Positions 4,075 to 59,489 of a stretch of DNA of 64,000 bases are shown here, one piece after another. The stretch is from assembly GCA_012549035.1 (NCBI GenBank), contig GCA_012549035.1_4805.1; one strand, 5' to 3'. The position numbers were made by a program, and so were the translations under genes. The notes under the pieces are model-generated. The model saw only the letters and a list, made by a program, of their open reading frames with translations, did no database searches and was not told where the DNA came from. How positions within the stretch are numbered: position 1 is the stretch's first letter; every line of letters starts with the position of its first letter. The stretch comes from a phage.

Positions 4075-4947
4075 TTAGGCCGATGGTGCAACGCCGCCCG
4101 TCACCGTAAATATATCATCACGACTTGCTAAATCATATTCAAGTTGCATGATGACAAATGTGGTGTCGTTCAAGCTTGGGTTTAAGACTGATTTGAATTT
4201 CACACCTTGGGCAAGCTTCAAATCCGCGTTATACATGCAAGTGAAGTCAGCACCCCACTCGTTCCACATCGGTATTCCGACAAATTCCTCAATCACCGTT
4301 ATCTGTTCTGGATTCAGAATTTTGTCTTTATCCTTGACGATGAGCGTATCATCATCGATATATGCCGCAATAGAGTTCCTTTGATAGTTCTGAATCTCAA
4401 GCAACAAGGCGGCTGCAACATATGTTGTGCGGCCTGGGTTAACAAGGCGCTGATTGTTAATCGAAGTATCGCATATAACAGTATCAATATCCATTTGCTT
4501 TGCCGACCACTCCACAAACTCTTTGAATGTTGGGTTTGACGGTGCAGCTTGAGTGATAAACTTAGTCCTGTTTATCTGGTTGGTGTAGCAAGTGATGCGT
4601 ATGACGATGTTCGGCGGCGGCGCTGTTATCTCGACCGTTGTGACTTGCCCCTTGTAGACTAAGTTGCTACTAACAACGTTGCCTTCTCTATATCCAGCTT
4701 CAATTGTTACGTTGACATAATTCGCCGCCAATTGGCCTTGATCACGCAGACGTTTGTTGAATGCGGTGAAGTTGGAAAGCAGGTACTCTCTCAAGTACCC
4801 TGTCAATCCTGCAACTTCGATTGTGGCCTTATTCTGCACGGAAAGTGCTGCCTTTTTGATTCGGCATCTGAGCATCAATCCTTCATCAAGCACTTGGCTT
4901 GTGCCATCCGGCATAGATAAGGTGACTTTAAGGATTCTCTTTTTCAA
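4075..4947 (-). CDS. Hypothetical baseplate hub / tail protein
   Basis: 290-aa ORF directly downstream of tape measure gene; tightly packed with neighbours. Confidence 0.5.
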   Translation of the reverse strand: MKKRILKVTLSMPDGTSQVLDEGLMLRCRIKKAALSVQNKATIEVAGLTGYLREYLLSNFTAFNKRLRDQGQLAANYVNVTIEAGYREGNVVSSNLVYKGQVTTVEITAPPPNIVIRITCYTNQINRTKFITQAAPSNPTFKEFVEWSAKQMDIDTVICDTSINNQRLVNPGRTTYVAAALLLEIQNYQRNSIAAYIDDDTLIVKDKDKILNPEQITVIEEFVGIPMWNEWGADFTCMYNADLKLAQGVKFKSVLNPSLNDTTFVIMQLEYDLASRDDIFTVTGGVAPSA

Positions 4948-46829: not shown

Positions 46830-47156
46830 ATGAACGAAAAAGAGACGAAGCAACGCGAACGTGCAACACACGTCGGAATCGTTGAGTCCTTCCTTAATAC
46901 AAGATTGAATTCAAGCCTAACAATCATGCGATTCCTGGGTCAACCAGACAGAATCAAATTTATTTTTGCCGCAAATCCGGTATCGCTGTACATCCCTGTT
47001 GAATCCATGGCGTACTTAGTGCGCGACGAGAAAGGATGGAAGATACCAAACACAACTGTTTTCTTCAGCCATGTTGATGGTGAGATGTTTGAACGAAAAG
47101 AAGATTGCCATTTTATTCCAGTATATCTGGACCTTGAAAGCGTAGTGGAGTTATAA
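46830..47156 (+). CDS. Hypothetical protein
   Basis: 108-aa ORF. Confidence 0.5.
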   Translation: MNEKETKQRERATHVGIVESFLNTRLNSSLTIMRFLGQPDRIKFIFAANPVSLYIPVESMAYLVRDEKGWKIPNTTVFFSHVDGEMFERKEDCHFIPVYLDLESVVEL

Positions 47157-48340: not shown

Positions 48341-48493
48341 TGTTGACGTAAATTTACGAAAAATAAAACTGAAAATCAGTTTAATTAAAGTGGCATTGCC
48401 GCCATAGTTTTTAGTTGCTACTGGCGGCAACTGAAGGCATAATTAAGTTATCCCAAACGGGGAATATAAAATAAACTAATTTATTTAAGGACT

Positions 48494-49339
48494 GTGAATA
48501 TGGCCGAAGCAATCAAAGTATTATCTAAAGAAGAAAAACAAGCAGCCGCAGCAGAACGTCGTCGCGTGGCTGAAGAAAAACGCCTGGCTAAAAAGAAAGA
48601 AGCCGAAGAGAAACGCCAGAAGCGTGAGCAGGAAAAACAAGCCAAGCGTGAAGAAGCTGCGCTGAAACGCAAGCAGGCTGCTGATGAGAAGGCTCAGAAG
48701 CGTGCTGAAGAAGCAGCTAAGAAAGCTAAAGAGCGTGCAGAAAAGGCTGCTGCTAAGAAAGCAGAGCGTGAAGCCGCTAAAGCAGCAAAAGAAATCGAAA
48801 AGGCAAAGGCTAAAGAAGAAGCCAAGCGCCTGAAAGCTGAGCAGGCTGCGGCCAAGAAAGCAGAGCGTGATCAAGCCCGTGCTGCAGCGAAGGCCGAAAA
48901 AGAGAAGGCCAAAGAAGAAGCTAAAGCGAAACGCAAGGCAGAGCGTGAAGCTGCTAAGATTGCGGCGAAAGAAGCTGCAGAACAGCAGAAAGAACAGCGT
49001 AAGAAAGAAGCTGAAGAACGTCGCAAAGCCATCGCAGAACGTAAGGCTGCTAAAAAGGCAAACGGTCAGCGTCGTGCAAAAGCCACTCACTTCATCTACA
49101 CTGGCAATGGCCTGAGCCAGCCGCAAGAGCATTCCACTCGTGGACGCGTTCTGGCGGCGATCAAAGAAGGCGAAGTTGGCGTGGCGCAGTCTATCGATGA
49201 GCTGGGCGAAAAAGTTAAAGATCAACTGTTTGGCGCTTCCGTTCGCTCCTACCTGAGCAAGCTGGAAGAGATGGGCCACATCGAGTTTGTCGATGTTGAA
49301 TCCAACGACGATGCTGAAGACGGTGATCAAGCGGAATAA
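48494..49339 (+). CDS. Lys/Ala/Glu-rich low-complexity protein with globular C-terminal domain (histone H1 / TolA-like)
   Basis: About 190 aa of KAKE/AAKK repeats followed by non-repetitive 90-aa C-terminus. Confidence 0.55.
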   Translation: MNMAEAIKVLSKEEKQAAAAERRRVAEEKRLAKKKEAEEKRQKREQEKQAKREEAALKRKQAADEKAQKRAEEAAKKAKERAEKAAAKKAEREAAKAAKEIEKAKAKEEAKRLKAEQAAAKKAERDQARAAAKAEKEKAKEEAKAKRKAEREAAKIAAKEAAEQQKEQRKKEAEERRKAIAERKAAKKANGQRRAKATHFIYTGNGLSQPQEHSTRGRVLAAIKEGEVGVAQSIDELGEKVKDQLFGASVRSYLSKLEEMGHIEFVDVESNDDAEDGDQAE

Positions 49340-49367: not shown

Positions 49368-49394
49368 GACCCACACTTGTTGTGGGTCTTTTTT
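49368..49394 (+). terminator. Intrinsic terminator
   Basis: gacccaca-cttgt-tgtgggtc followed by tttttt. Confidence 0.6.
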
Positions 49395-49473: not shown

Positions 49474-50469
49474 ATGAACATGAAACAACATGTAATGATT
49501 ATCGGCGGCGGTTTGGCAGGACTTATTACCGCGTGTCACTTCCCGAACTCTATTGTGTACGAAGCAGGGGAGCGAGCGCAGCAGCACAAGGCGTTGCTAC
49601 GCTTTCGCGGCGAAGAAGTAAGCCGTATTACCGGAATCCCTTTTAAGGCCGTGACAGTTGACAAGGCTGTGTATTTTCGCGGCAACTACTACCACGACCA
49701 TTGCCCAATCAACCTTGCCAATATGTATTCCATGAAGGTCACCAATCAATTCGGTAGCCGCTCAATTATGAAGCTTAAAACTGCAACGCGTTATATTGCG
49801 CCTGATGACTTTTATGATCAGCTTGTCGACAAACTGGGTGACCGCATATTCTTTAACACTCCTGTTGATACGCTTTGCGGCTATAGCGAGACGCCAATCA
49901 TCAACACGTCGCCGCTGCCAGTCATGATGAAGCTTGCTGGGATTGATCAAAAGATTGATTTCTCATTCGATAAGGCGAACATTCGTGTTTACCGCTTTAA
50001 GATTAAACGCAAGTGTGAACTGTATCAAACCATTTACTTCCCTGACTACTCCGTCAGAACTTACCGCGCATCAATCACTGGCGACACATTGATCATCGAA
50101 ACAATTCCTTTGGTTAGCGTAAGTGAAGCTGCAGTTGAAGCCGCTGGCGGCATTACTCGTTACCGTGACATTAAGTTGCGTGCAGAAGTTGACGAAGTGT
50201 TGACAGCCTTTGGCCTCTCATGGAGTGACATTACTCTTGAAGAAGTTGAAAAGGTCGACCAGAAATATGGCAAGATTGTCGACATTCCGAAGGACTTGCG
50301 ACACGCCCTACTCCTGCAGCTGACTATGGATTTGAACGTGTTTAGTGTCGGTCGATTTGCTACCTGGCGCAACATTTTGCTTGATGATGTCGCTCATGAC
50401 CTTGTTGAAGTTGAAAAACTCATCAAAGCAAATAACTATCAAAAATTTGCTTATATTGCTAATAAATAA
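49474..50469 (+). CDS. FAD/NAD(P)-binding oxidoreductase (putative)
   Basis: N-terminal Rossmann dinucleotide motif MIIGGGLAGL; 331 aa. Confidence 0.5.
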   Translation: MNMKQHVMIIGGGLAGLITACHFPNSIVYEAGERAQQHKALLRFRGEEVSRITGIPFKAVTVDKAVYFRGNYYHDHCPINLANMYSMKVTNQFGSRSIMKLKTATRYIAPDDFYDQLVDKLGDRIFFNTPVDTLCGYSETPIINTSPLPVMMKLAGIDQKIDFSFDKANIRVYRFKIKRKCELYQTIYFPDYSVRTYRASITGDTLIIETIPLVSVSEAAVEAAGGITRYRDIKLRAEVDEVLTAFGLSWSDITLEEVEKVDQKYGKIVDIPKDLRHALLLQLTMDLNVFSVGRFATWRNILLDDVAHDLVEVEKLIKANNYQKFAYIANK

Positions 50470-57560: not shown

Positions 57561-57969
57561 CCGTGAGCAGAAATACATATTCGTCCCATTGAAGAAGCAT
57601 TCGGAATCAATATTGAAGCTTCAACGAATCGAGTCAATGACGGGCGATGGCGTGCCGGACGTAATCGGCACCAACCGGAAAGGGCGCGGCTTTTGGCTTG
57701 AAATGAAGTTCTTTGAATCGTGGCCTGCAAGGGCCACCACTGCACCTTTCAGAAATGCATTTGAGAAAGGCCAATGCAGCTTTCTTTCTTCGTGGAATGA
57801 TTGGAAATACCCATCATTTGTTCTGCTTAAGGTTGATTCTGAGAAGATGTTTTATTTAGTCCACCCTTCTATTGAATTAAAGCGTTATAATACTGCAGAC
57901 GTTCAACGTGAGATAATCGTGAAGGGAACTATTCATCACATCATCAAGTATTTAGAGGAATTGTCATGA
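57547..57969 (+). CDS. VRR-NUC-like nuclease (PD-(D/E)xK)
   Basis: GVPDVIGTNRKGRGFWLEMK fits PD...E-x-K; lies directly upstream of SNF2 helicase. Confidence 0.5.
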   Translation: MATNNREQKYIFVPLKKHSESILKLQRIESMTGDGVPDVIGTNRKGRGFWLEMKFFESWPARATTAPFRNAFEKGQCSFLSSWNDWKYPSFVLLKVDSEKMFYLVHPSIELKRYNTADVQREIIVKGTIHHIIKYLEELS

Positions 57970-59489
57970 AAACACAAGGAATGCGCCACCAATTATTGGC
58001 GCTTGATAAAGCAGGCCGCAGAAAATACTTTGCTTATTTCATGGAGCAGGGTCTTGGTAAAACCTGGACTGCTTTGGCAGAGTTTGAAAAGCATTTCACC
58101 GCTGGCGCATTTGACGCCATGGTTGTCATCGCTCCTAATGGTGTACACTCAAACTGGATTCGTCGTGAAGCGCCAGAGCACCTTTCCATCAAGTGGATTG
58201 GGCATTACTGGCGCGGCAATGACAAGATGAAAACTAAAAAGGGCAAAGCAATTTGGGAGAAGATGTTTGCTGATCACTATCCTGAAGGTGAAGTGCCTGC
58301 GCGCATCTTCTCATTCAACATTGACACGGTGAATACGCCAGTCGGTTATCAACACATTGAGTCCGTACTGAAGAAGTACCGCTGTTTGATGATCATTGAT
58401 GAATCGACGCGTATCAAAAATAACACAGCCAAGCGTTCCATCAAGGTTGTGGAATTGGGACGGCTGGCAAAGGCCCGTCGAATCCTTTCCGGTACGCCGC
58501 TGCCGCGCTCGCCTGCTGATATTTACATGCAGTATCACTTCCTTGAAGCTGGCTTGCTTGGCACCAAATCGTTCCGTGCATTCAATTCTGAATTCACGGT
58601 GCTGCTTGAAGCGCACGACCCAGAGATGCAGGCCATTCTCAAGAAAATCGGCGGCAACGGTTATGGCATTCCGCAAGTGCCGCGCAAAGACCAGTTTGGC
58701 CGACCGATGTATAAAAACCTTGACAAGCTTATCCGGCTGATGGAGCCGCACTATTTCCGCGCGACAAAAGCGGAATACCTGCCGGAACTTCCAGAGAAGG
58801 TGTACAAGTTTATCGACTTCGAGTTGTCGCCTAAGCAGCGCGATGTCTATGATGAACTCAAGAATGAGTACAACTATCTGATGGAGTATAAAGGCGAAGA
58901 AGAAAACGTTAAGTTTGAGATGATCGCATCTCGCACTAAGATGAAGCAGGTGACATCAGGCTTTGTTAAGGTGTATGATGAGATGGTCTACATGGAAGAT
59001 AACCCACGATTCACGGCCTTTAAGGACTATGTTGAAGGGGTGTTGGAAGATGACCCAGAGCGCAAATTCATTGTGTGGGCAATCTTTAAGGAAGAGATGA
59101 ACCAGATTAAGGATTGGCTTGAGTCTGAAGGCGTGGTCACTGGTGTGTACAACGGTGAAACGTCAAAAGAGCAGCGCGAGTTCTTGATTGATGACTTCCA
59201 GAAAAACACAGTCGAGAACGGTGGGACGCAAGTCTTAGTTTGTCACGCTGCAGCGGCAGGCATCGGAATCACGCTTACCGCCGCCGACTTGGCAATCTAT
59301 TATTCTTGCAACTATGACAACGAGTTGCGCAAGCAATCCGAAGACCGAAATCACCGCATCGGCACCAAATCAAGCGTGTTGTATGTTGATTTTATTGGGG
59401 TTGATACCATCGACGAAGAAATTCAGCGTTCATTGAGTATGAAGTCTATGCTTGCTGATCACATCCTCGACGGCAAAAAGATGAATTAA
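57966..59489 (+). CDS. SNF2-family (SF2) helicase
   Basis: Motif I GLGKT, motif II MIIDESTRIKN, C-terminal helicase motifs. Confidence 0.75.
   Translation: MKTQGMRHQLLALDKAGRRKYFAYFMEQGLGKTWTALAEFEKHFTAGAFDAMVVIAPNGVHSNWIRREAPEHLSIKWIGHYWRGNDKMKTKKGKAIWEKMFADHYPEGEVPARIFSFNIDTVNTPVGYQHIESVLKKYRCLMIIDESTRIKNNTAKRSIKVVELGRLAKARRILSGTPLPRSPADIYMQYHFLEAGLLGTKSFRAFNSEFTVLLEAHDPEMQAILKKIGGNGYGIPQVPRKDQFGRPMYKNLDKLIRLMEPHYFRATKAEYLPELPEKVYKFIDFELSPKQRDVYDELKNEYNYLMEYKGEEENVKFEMIASRTKMKQVTSGFVKVYDEMVYMEDNPRFTAFKDYVEGVLEDDPERKFIVWAIFKEEMNQIKDWLESEGVVTGVYNGETSKEQREFLIDDFQKNTVENGGTQVLVCHAAAAGIGITLTAADLAIYYSCNYDNELRKQSEDRNHRIGTKSSVLYVDFIGVDTIDEEIQRSLSMKSMLADHILDGKKMN

Follow-up and report, generated by a model that had tools for sequence, protein, structure and literature searches.

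The gene considered here occupies positions 48500 to 49339 on the forward strand of a 64,000-nucleotide stretch of phage DNA (GenBank assembly GCA_012549035.1, contig GCA_012549035.1_4805.1; the whole stretch is called the window below) and belongs to the phage protein family PHROG 4765. It is a real gene, expressed as protein and under strong purifying selection, and both its architecture and its position among neighboring genes are conserved. Its product combines a very long predicted alpha-helix, along which lysine and arginine form a continuous basic stripe, with a small C-terminal domain and an acidic tail. The reading that we tentatively favor, at somewhat less than even chances, is that of a non-sequence-specific nucleic-acid-binding protein (the ligand likely being double-stranded DNA) with an architectural or accessory role in the replication and DNA-metabolism module of the phage.

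Twenty-nine phage records, among them Bas99, SP13, WFC, vB_Eco4M-7, and FEC19, share 95-98% identity with the window between positions 47000 and 51000, and by its sequence the whole window is that of a Wifcevirus, a vB_EcoM_WFC-like myophage of E. coli that is kin to the Pseudomonas PB1-like phages (Pbunavirus). The literature searched assigns no function to PHROG 4765. The family itself has already been catalogued under that name, while the phase-coherent basic stripe in hendecad register and the winged-helix-like core described below are, as far as we can tell, new.

A Constrained Gene on the Forward Strand

48500..49339, + strand: coding sequence (CDS), 279 amino acids plus stop; PHROG 4765, a family of no assigned function (open reading frame list, PHROG match, codon statistics, mass spectrometry)
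48487..48491, + strand: Shine-Dalgarno sequence AAGGA, 8 nt 5' of the ATG at 48500 (read off the sequence; a ribosome binding site is annotated in the same place in phage Mansfield)
48521..49330, - strand: spurious antisense open reading frame, 269 amino acids (codon columns in the reverse frame; internal stop in phage Mansfield)

A first-pass annotation of the window had placed this protein in an open reading frame (ORF) running from a GTG codon at 48494 to 49339. The ORF is present on the forward strand in the ORF list and is genuine, but the ATG at 48500 is the likelier start, because it follows AAGGA at a distance of 8 nt and because the CDS is 840 nt long in all annotated relatives. The resulting protein of 279 residues has a computed mass of 31.1 kDa and a pI of 9.6 and matches the PHROG 4765 profile with E = 2.4e-84 (residues 1-279 against profile positions 14-271 of 294).

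Nine distinct Wifcevirus copies of the gene are each 840 nt long and contain no indels. The third codon position in the forward frame takes 47 of their 50 variable sites, and 45 variable codon columns are synonymous as against 4 that are non-synonymous. Only four amino-acid changes separate the nine copies, two of them (Q162K and K169Q) inside the 177-residue charged region, where 29 of the 31 variable sites are third positions.

Since in Pbunaviruses the gene adjoining the neighboring helicase is overlapped by a genuine antisense gene, the anti-defence gene DadIII-1 (PMC12390725), the long reverse-strand ORF required a check of its own. Read in the frame of that ORF, the nine Wifcevirus copies yield 5 synonymous versus 44 non-synonymous columns, and in phage Mansfield the ORF is broken by a stop codon. 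From these counts and the Mansfield stop it follows that the forward gene is real and strongly constrained over its full length and that the reverse ORF is an artefact of codon composition, as the first-pass annotation had supposed in calling it spurious.

A Predicted Very Long Helix with a Continuous Basic Stripe

48527..49054, + strand: predicted single uninterrupted alpha-helix, residues 10-185, with a basic stripe in hendecad (11/3) register (AlphaFold2, Fourier analysis)

Residues 10-186 are composed of 31% Ala, 25% Lys, 21% Glu, and 11% Arg, carry a net charge of +25, lack Pro altogether, and include only 7 hydrophobic residues among 177. AlphaFold2, run with an 11-sequence alignment, models residues 10-185 as one unbroken helix (per-residue confidence, pLDDT, of 80-96), which at 0.15 nm per residue gives 176 residues a length of approximately 26 nm. 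A long Lys/Ala/Glu-rich region followed by a globular C-terminal domain, as originally described from the letters, is thus borne out by composition, conservation, and the structural model. The accompanying description of KAKE/AAKK-type repeats is loosely right for the composition and for a strong basic periodicity of 11/3, but does not hold for the DNA, in which Tandem Repeats Finder reported no array and only a 2-copy 15-mer; a true tandem repeat was therefore rejected in favor of a compositional and periodic bias.

The periodicity is the most distinctive property of the protein. Fourier analysis of the Lys and Arg positions gave a peak at 3.68 residues, equivalent to the 11/3 of a hendecad, which was reached in 0 of 500 shuffled sequences. 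When the region is written in rows of 11, positions 0, 3, 7, and 10 hold 43 Lys or Arg and 2 Asp or Glu, with the acidic residues and Ala elsewhere, so that in this protein basic residues occupy a, d, h, and k, where a hendecad coiled coil would have its hydrophobic core. The phase of the stripe drifts only from -98 to -20 degrees over all 177 residues, and the charge moment at 11/3 is 0.41 compared with a null value of 0.09. A peak at 3.66-3.70 residues is found in 13 of 15 orthologs of different genera, where the charge moment ranges from 0.32 to 0.49 (null again 0.09); those bearing the stripe include LBL3, Kyle, Gekk3-15, and metagenomic phages. The peak is weaker in BcepF1, where it was reached in 2 of 500 shuffles, and is absent from one lineage (L017). 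Because the same periodicity recurs in orthologs whose helix sequences cannot be aligned with one another, conservation lies in the unbroken basic stripe of a very long helix and not in the sequence.

The region has neither a hydrophobic seam nor a heptad, which are the features by which a single alpha-helix (SAH) is told from a coiled coil. Fourier analysis found no power at 3.5 residues, and neither an Ala periodicity nor an Ala seam was significant; a heptad coiled coil and an Ala-zipper dimer were accordingly rejected. Opposite-charge pairs gave z = 1.5 at i+3 and z = 1.7 at i+4 relative to shuffles, many of these positions being taken by like charges within the stripe. Residues 10-185 are predicted to form a single helix and not a coiled coil. 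A search of the helix alone against the PDB returned no match, owing to bias filtering.

Hendecad helices occur in the right-handed coiled coils of tetrabrachion and as 11-mer amphipathic helices in apolipoproteins, alpha-synuclein, and group-3 LEA proteins. The phage helix shares with them a period of 11 residues, which lets one face run straight down a helix of great length, and the LEA 11-mers are likewise rich in Lys, Ala, and Glu. It differs in placing Lys or Arg, where those helices have hydrophobic residues, at positions a, d, h, and k, and since these positions are basic, the surface facing them should be that of a polyanion and not of a lipid or another helix.

A Conserved C-Terminal Domain and an Acidic Tail

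49058..49303, + strand: conserved C-terminal domain, residues 187-268, beta-alpha-beta-alpha-alpha-beta, of winged-helix-like topology (AlphaFold2, conservation)
49295..49336, + strand: acidic disordered tail, residues 266-279, VESNDDAEDGDQAE (pLDDT, composition)

Outside the genus only residues 188-279 of the protein find matches. Identity over the C-terminal domain is 64% with Pantoea phage Kyle, 53% with Serratia MTx, and 54% with approximately 293 Pseudomonas PB1-like phages, and further matches are found in BcepF1, Xanthomonas XcP1, and Aeromonas Gekk3-15 (37% for the last). Seven positions are invariant in 26 diverse members (R192, Q209, S212, R214, G227, R249, and K254); four of the seven are charged, and all four are basic. 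The domain is modeled with a pLDDT of 84-94 in the full-length AlphaFold2 structure and of about 90 for the core when modeled by itself.

Foldseek comparison of the domain with the PDB gave nothing significant (best E = 0.35, TM score about 0.5). The top matches, all non-significant and with TM scores of about 0.5, were consistently winged-helix modules: the insert of MetAP2/Ebp1/Arx1, the winged helix of RPC39, RPA32C, and AhrC-N, while a fold search of BFVD retrieved orthologs only (TM score 0.81). Profile searches with the C-domain likewise found nothing significant among PDB sequences or in Pfam. Taken together, the models and searches predict a new domain family with winged-helix-like topology. 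Sub-threshold echoes in the profile searches, to L18 (E = 0.2), YejK/NA37 (0.005-0.8), and RPA_C (0.25), were taken as noise or as leads. The echo of the nucleoid-associated YejK/NA37 proteins falls in residues 205-240 and appeared in two independent searches (PDB 9be2_A, E = 0.81; Pfam NA37, E = 0.0047 for 2 of 26 members); it covers only about 35 residues and was not used as evidence.

The C-terminal tail is acidic and, to judge from the model, disordered: residues 265-279 contain 8 Asp or Glu and no Lys or Arg, and the pLDDT of residues 269-279 is below 50. Of 51 orthologs, 45 have an acidic tail, and 28 of the 51 end in Glu. Domain and tail together (residues 187-279) are net acidic, with a pI of 4.8.

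Family Range and Natural Variants

Searched exhaustively with HMMER, a set of 1.84 billion representative proteins yielded 28 clusters only, for which reason we regard the family as narrow, and in each of these clusters the domain stands at the C-terminus; word-indexed homolog searches also found few proteins. The region preceding the domain, which is mostly helix, is 134-274 amino acids long in most members. The C-terminal domain is thus the core of the family, to which the helix is an expandable addition.

The first-pass annotation had proposed that repeat-number variation with frameshifts among relatives would mark the charged region as non-essential low-complexity filler. The Wifcevirus copies show no such variation, being free of indels and under strong purifying selection. 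The approximately 297 Pbunavirus genomes that carry the gene show it only rarely, and about 295 of them keep the gene. In phage antinowhere (NC_050150; L023, about position 4845) a 17-nt deletion within the charged region shifts the reading frame, and the annotation there has two ORFs in place of one gene. In vB_PaeM_FBPa21 (ON857942; L044, 3660-4598) a deletion of approximately 1 kb fuses codons 1-13 of the ortholog in frame to the next gene, which encodes a protein like UDP-galactopyranose mutase (UGM) and thereby loses its first 34 or so residues, including the GxGxxG motif, leaving the isolate without either function. Phage NP3 (L045, 471-1277) has a clean in-frame deletion of 26 amino acids, and because 26 residues correspond to 7.09 turns of an 11/3 helix, the phase of the stripe is nearly kept. 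The disrupted copies in FBPa21 and antinowhere indicate a gene that is conserved in nature and, judging from these sequenced isolates, dispensable for laboratory propagation.

That the helix is largely functionless filler attached to a small domain is, in our estimation, very improbable. Its sequence cannot be aligned between genera, its length varies, rare frameshift and deletion variants occur in isolates, and a short-helix variant exists; all of this would suit filler. However, the confinement of Wifcevirus variation in the charged region to third codon positions (all but 2 of 31 sites), the phase-coherent stripe kept in nearly all of the lineages compared, and the retention of the gene by almost every Pbunavirus genome do not. 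The absence of indels in Wifcevirus, the strong purifying selection, and the rarity of Pbunavirus variants argue that the charged region is not filler.

The short-helix variant (P0031; L047/L048, 5001-5351) is a distant member of 116 amino acids in which the C-domain is preceded by only about 30 residues and followed by hardly any acidic tail. Its gene lies downstream of a Dda-like helicase gene in a 70.7-kb phage contig, separated from it by two unrelated small ORFs; the small ORFs adjoining it were considered as a detached charged helix and rejected. Many metagenomic orthologs (L016, L021, L022, L027-L029; P0007-P0009, P0011, and P0015) have a His-rich start before the charged helix, e.g., MSHGHHHHT or MSHAHGHHHNHEHH, which suggests metal binding by these sequences; the segment is absent from the Wifcevirus and Pbunavirus proteins. 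Several Pbunavirus records carry annotated "repeat_region" features within the gene.

A Possible Architectural DNA-Binding Protein

The closest functional analogue that we can name, as an analogy and not as a homolog, is the KER region of CAF-1 with its partner winged helix. KER is a K/E/R-rich single alpha-helix whose basic stripe binds DNA without sequence specificity and which cooperates with a C-terminal winged-helix domain (PMC10335832). Both proteins contain a long, solvent-exposed, K/E/R-rich helix with a basic face, and the stripe of basic residues along the helix that characterizes KER is found in the phage protein; the C-domain of the latter, by its predicted topology, may correspond to the winged-helix domain that CAF-1 carries in the same polypeptide. 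The differences are nevertheless considerable. The only match between the two is compositional (E = 0.79); the phage helix has 176 residues as against 90 and is 31% Ala; its stripe, at 3.68 residues, is far stronger than the modest face at 3.6 of human CAF-1 KER; and the phage protein stands alone and has an acidic tail, unlike CAF-1, which belongs to a eukaryotic histone chaperone as a subunit.

The favored reading draws on the selective constraint, the stripe, the single helix, the CAF-1 precedent, the winged-helix-like topology of the C-domain and the basic character of its invariant charged residues, the nearly phase-preserving deletion in NP3, the conserved gene order, and the detection of the protein by mass spectrometry (MS; see below). 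It also draws on the annotation of the module, in which no single-stranded DNA-binding protein (SSB), HU, or other architectural DNA-binding protein is recorded (curated Bas99 annotation), leaving no other candidate for such a role.

We infer a monomeric helix with DNA as its ligand, and the parts given below to domain and tail, like the timing of expression, are to be taken in the same sense. Residues 10-185 would form a rigid, solvent-exposed single alpha-helix of about 26 nm, with Lys and Arg at hendecad positions a, d, h, and k. These would provide approximately 43 unbroken basic charges, roughly one per 0.6 nm, while Glu and Ala on the other faces would stabilize the helix. The stripe could lie along a DNA duplex, over some 75-80 bp, or between neighboring duplexes, and so neutralize, stiffen, or bridge them. 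The winged-helix-like domain might serve as a DNA anchor or as a dock for a partner, and the product of the adjacent Dda-like helicase gene readily suggests itself as that partner. As in HMGB1 and T4 gp32, the acidic tail might lie folded against the stripe until DNA displaces it, or it may recruit partners. As a DNA-binding protein, it might in part be packaged with the genome. Should the striped helix bind DNA, SAH-type DNA binding, so far described for CAF-1 alone, would have its first prokaryotic or viral example, in a cleaner and longer design, and the protein would represent a chromatin-like component for tailed-phage DNA biology.

Several observations weigh against this proposal. DNA binding is proposed by analogy with CAF-1, and canonical SAH domains such as that of myosin 7a do not bind DNA (PMC10335832). 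The winged-helix assignment is one of topology, with the modest Foldseek values given above (E 0.35, TM score about 0.5). The domain and its tail together have an acidic pI of 4.8, and there are winged-helix domains, RPA32C among them, whose ligands are proteins and not DNA. The net charge of the helix in most orthologs is +1 to +16, far below the +25 of Wifcevirus, and in one natural variant the helix has only about 30 amino acids. AlphaFold2 is prone to long helices for compositions of this kind and gives no oligomeric state. The disrupted copies in Pbunaviruses FBPa21 and antinowhere point to a role that is non-essential in the laboratory. Finally, since a helicase and glyoxalase-like and reductase proteins appear in the same MS lists, detection of the protein in virion preparations may reflect abundance and not packaging.

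In a different proposal the protein is a spacer or adaptor between proteins, its helix acting as a rigid 26-nm ruler and its C-domain and tail docking the Dda-like helicase, the polymerase, or a SNF2-family translocase; the basic stripe would then bind an acidic protein surface or only steer the complex to DNA. We consider this improbable. SAH domains are classical spacers, and the KER of CAF-1 also functions as one (PMC10335832). The weak fold echoes include the protein-binding winged helix RPA32C, and one family member gives a Pfam RPA_C match of E = 0.25. Acidic C-terminal tails serve as docking elements in SSB-type proteins, and the phage protein has a tail of this type; its gene is also tightly linked to that of the Dda-like helicase, and the SNF2-family translocase is encoded in the same module. 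However, a pure spacer needs no charge-segregated face conserved across genera, and a helix that ranges from about 30 to about 270 amino acids is ill suited to a fixed ruler length.

TolA, Histone H1, and Names in the Databases

The first-pass annotation had likened the protein to TolA and to histone H1 and had allowed for nucleoid-associated, DNA-condensing, or envelope-spanning roles. Among these, the nucleoid-associated or DNA-condensing class is the most plausible; that the protein is a TolA-like envelope-spanning protein or a true linker-histone homolog is hardly credible. Searches of Pfam, NCBIfam, and PADLOC gave no meaningful match: Pfam returned 0 families, and NCBIfam returned 3 compositional matches with E >= 0.2, none of them to TolA.

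The likeness to TolA is one of composition, in that TolA domain II is also an elongated helix of approximately 200 residues rich in Ala, Lys, and Glu (Asp), and this resemblance accounts for the several records named "TolA protein". The phage protein, however, has no N-terminal transmembrane anchor or signal sequence. Its highest 19-residue Kyte-Doolittle average is 0.61, and that of 14 orthologs is at most 1.01, whereas a transmembrane segment needs about 1.6 or more. It has no counterpart of TolA domain III, as no model of TolA, of TonB_C, or of related families matched in Pfam or NCBIfam. Instead of a tolQ-tolR-tolA-tolB-pal context, its gene has a Dda-like helicase gene and nucleotide-metabolism genes for neighbors, within the replication module of a phage. 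In addition, domain II of E. coli TolA lacks a charge-segregated face in hendecad register: its charge moment is 0.04 at 11/3, and its peak falls at 5.3 residues. The envelope-spanning interpretation was abandoned on these grounds.

The comparison with linker histones is suggested by a winged-helix-like fold joined to a basic region. H1, H5, and H1-like bacterial nucleoid proteins (Chlamydia Hc1, Pseudomonas AlgP, and the tail of mycobacterial Hlp) also join a small fold, of winged-helix or other type, to a long basic stretch rich in Lys and Ala, which could neutralize and condense DNA. In the phage protein the order of the domains is reversed relative to H1 and H5, the basic part being N-terminal, and that part is an ordered helix with 21% Glu and not a disordered K/A/P tail. 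Neither the protein nor any of the 26 family C-domains matches linker-histone PF00538 in Pfam, and the similarity of fold is weak, linker histone 7dbp_K standing at rank 50 in the Foldseek list (E = 6.9, TMq 0.38). Homology to H1 thus fails, as does the genomic setting.

GenBank names for family members are "TolA protein", "putative structural protein", and "hypothetical protein"; these have spread from compositional BLAST matches or from virion MS and carry no functional information. A nearly universal and abundant protein of PB1-like phages and Wifceviruses thus bears a misleading name, in phages of some practical interest: the PB1-like phages are among the Pseudomonas aeruginosa phages most used in personalised therapy, and the Wifceviruses are a recent model group in E. 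coli. The annotations "TolA protein" and "cell wall associated hydrolase" would be better dropped. Identity with the END-nuclease inhibitor was also considered and ruled out, that protein being 14-1 gp88, the product of another gene.

Detection in Virion Preparations

The protein has been detected by MS in CsCl-purified particles of two Wifceviruses. In vB_Eco4M-7 the ortholog vB_Eco4M-7_83 ("TolA protein") was identified from 7 peptides with 25.8% coverage and a score of 1198, compared with 1112 for the portal protein, and in ECML-117 virions PI34_gp81 was found from 2 peptides (PMC7048862). Since cleavage by trypsin would leave only very short peptides of the helix, a coverage of about 26% is probably near the obtainable maximum and suggests that the protein was abundant. 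Because the same lists also hold helicase, glyoxalase-like, and reductase proteins (PMC7048862), they are not clean virion proteomes. Two products of the gene cluster described below were among the proteins of the CsCl-purified particles, a glyoxalase-family protein of 20.8 kDa (score 718) and a FabG-like reductase (PMC7048862); their presence hints either at carry-over from the lysate or at packaging of DNA-metabolism proteins with the genome. The PHROG 4765 protein may thus be associated with the virion. The paper on phages KTN6 and KT28 gives no proteome data.

These data raise the prospect that the protein is a DNA-associated internal virion protein, which coats part of the genome in the capsid, is injected with it, and protects or organizes the incoming DNA. 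We judge this unlikely but worth attention; it would extend the favored architectural role and is not exclusive of it, and it would bear on the unexplained resistance of Wifceviruses to restriction. Besides the score close to that of the portal protein, it gains some color from the label "putative structural protein" borne by the ortholog in LBL3 and many PB1-like records. It is also favored by Pbunavirus SCUT-S1, the DNA of which was removed with LiCl before MS and for which the ortholog was not listed, although the neighboring helicase was. Conversely, the gene belongs to the replication module and not to the morphogenesis module, clearly non-structural proteins share the MS lists, and the searched text of the cryo-EM papers on E217 and Pa193 does not mention the protein. 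Moreover, the hypermodification of Pbunavirus DNA may by itself explain resistance to restriction.

A more far-reaching version, which we hold to be doubtful, would make the protein a phage analogue of linker histone: a 26-nm helix that, through the basic residues at its hendecad core positions, in effect forms a coiled coil with DNA, a new principle, anchored by a novel winged-helix-like domain, packaged together with a sugar-hypermodified genome, and injected with it. Such a protein would shield or organize the incoming DNA, could have a part in the very rapid life cycle of Wifceviruses and in their resistance to restriction, and might interact functionally with the SNF2-family translocase of the phage.

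Genomic Context and Neighboring Genes

48415..48443, + strand: candidate sigma-70-like promoter, TTGCTA-17-CATAAT, approximately 56 nt upstream of the ATG (consensus scan, 9/12 matches; a weak call)
49368..49394, + strand: intrinsic terminator, 8-bp stem with 5 G-C pairs followed by a T run (scan; graded strong)

The order of genes around the PHROG 4765 gene is a primase gene on the opposite strand, the Dda-like helicase gene, the PHROG 4765 gene, usually a terminator, and then nucleotide-metabolism and polymerase genes. This order is kept in Wifcevirus, Pbunavirus, BcepF1, Aeromonas phage Gekk3-15, and a distant 70-kb metagenomic phage. The terminator is annotated in WFC, WFH, and Mansfield and is found at the equivalent site in LBL3. 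The hexamers of the candidate promoter are unchanged in 7 Wifcevirus genomes.

The next gene (49474-50469, + strand) encodes a protein of 331 amino acids that belongs to PHROG 4828, has an N-terminal GGGLAGL Rossmann motif, and is UGM-like according to the HHpred annotation in phage Mansfield. Genes for ThyX, a PNKP-like protein, and a FabG-like reductase follow it on the 3' side, to about 53500. Thymidine in Pbunavirus DNA carries a sugar-type hypermodification to which no genes have been assigned (PMC12191111). Because the DNA of these relatives is sugar-hypermodified and the resistance of Wifceviruses to restriction-modification is unexplained, the UGM-like, ThyX, PNKP-like, and FabG-like genes are a candidate hypermodification pathway.

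The adjacency of this cluster invites the proposal that the PHROG 4765 protein is an accessory factor of thymidine hypermodification, a DNA-bound scaffold that places the downstream enzymes (the UGM-like flavoprotein, ThyX, PNKP, and the FabG-like reductase), and the probability that we attach to it is small. Besides the sugar-type modification itself (PMC12191111) and the presence of plausible enzymes next to the gene, the FBPa21 deletion removes the gene together with the FAD-binding N-terminus of the UGM-like gene, and glyoxalase-like and FabG-like proteins of the cluster also occur in virion preparations (PMC7048862). The connection is nonetheless one of adjacency only, and a terminator separates the gene from those downstream. 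BcepF1 and the distant 70-kb phage, in addition, keep the gene, but the genes downstream of it are different ones and include none that is UGM-like.

Other features of the locus were recorded in passing. The sense gene at 46830-47156 (+ strand), upstream of the Dda-like helicase gene, has a Pbunavirus equivalent that is overlapped in antisense by the anti-Druantia gene DadIII-1; its own protein has no Pfam match. The gene at 57966-59489 (+ strand), annotated as "DNA helicase", encodes a SNF2-family ATPase/translocase (PF00176, E = 1e-21, plus Helicase_C), and its Pbunavirus homolog has been compared to the chromatin remodelers Ino80 and CHD1L (PMC12390725); such a gene deserves notice beside one for a putative DNA-coating protein.

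The 159-nt spacer upstream of the PHROG 4765 gene (48341-48499) is conserved beyond the synonymous sites of the CDS, with 154 of 159 positions invariant in 7 Wifceviruses. The motif GAATATAAAAT was considered as a shared late-promoter element and rejected, its other occurrences being a Shine-Dalgarno sequence plus ATG and an intragenic site. As RNA, the spacer is predicted to fold stably (-22.8 kcal/mol, z = -3.35), and an alternative 9-bp hairpin would pair 48396-48404 with 48422-48430. Within this hairpin the pair 48397:48429 shows a possible compensatory series (U-A, U.G, and C-G), while the minimum free energy fold is built of other pairs.

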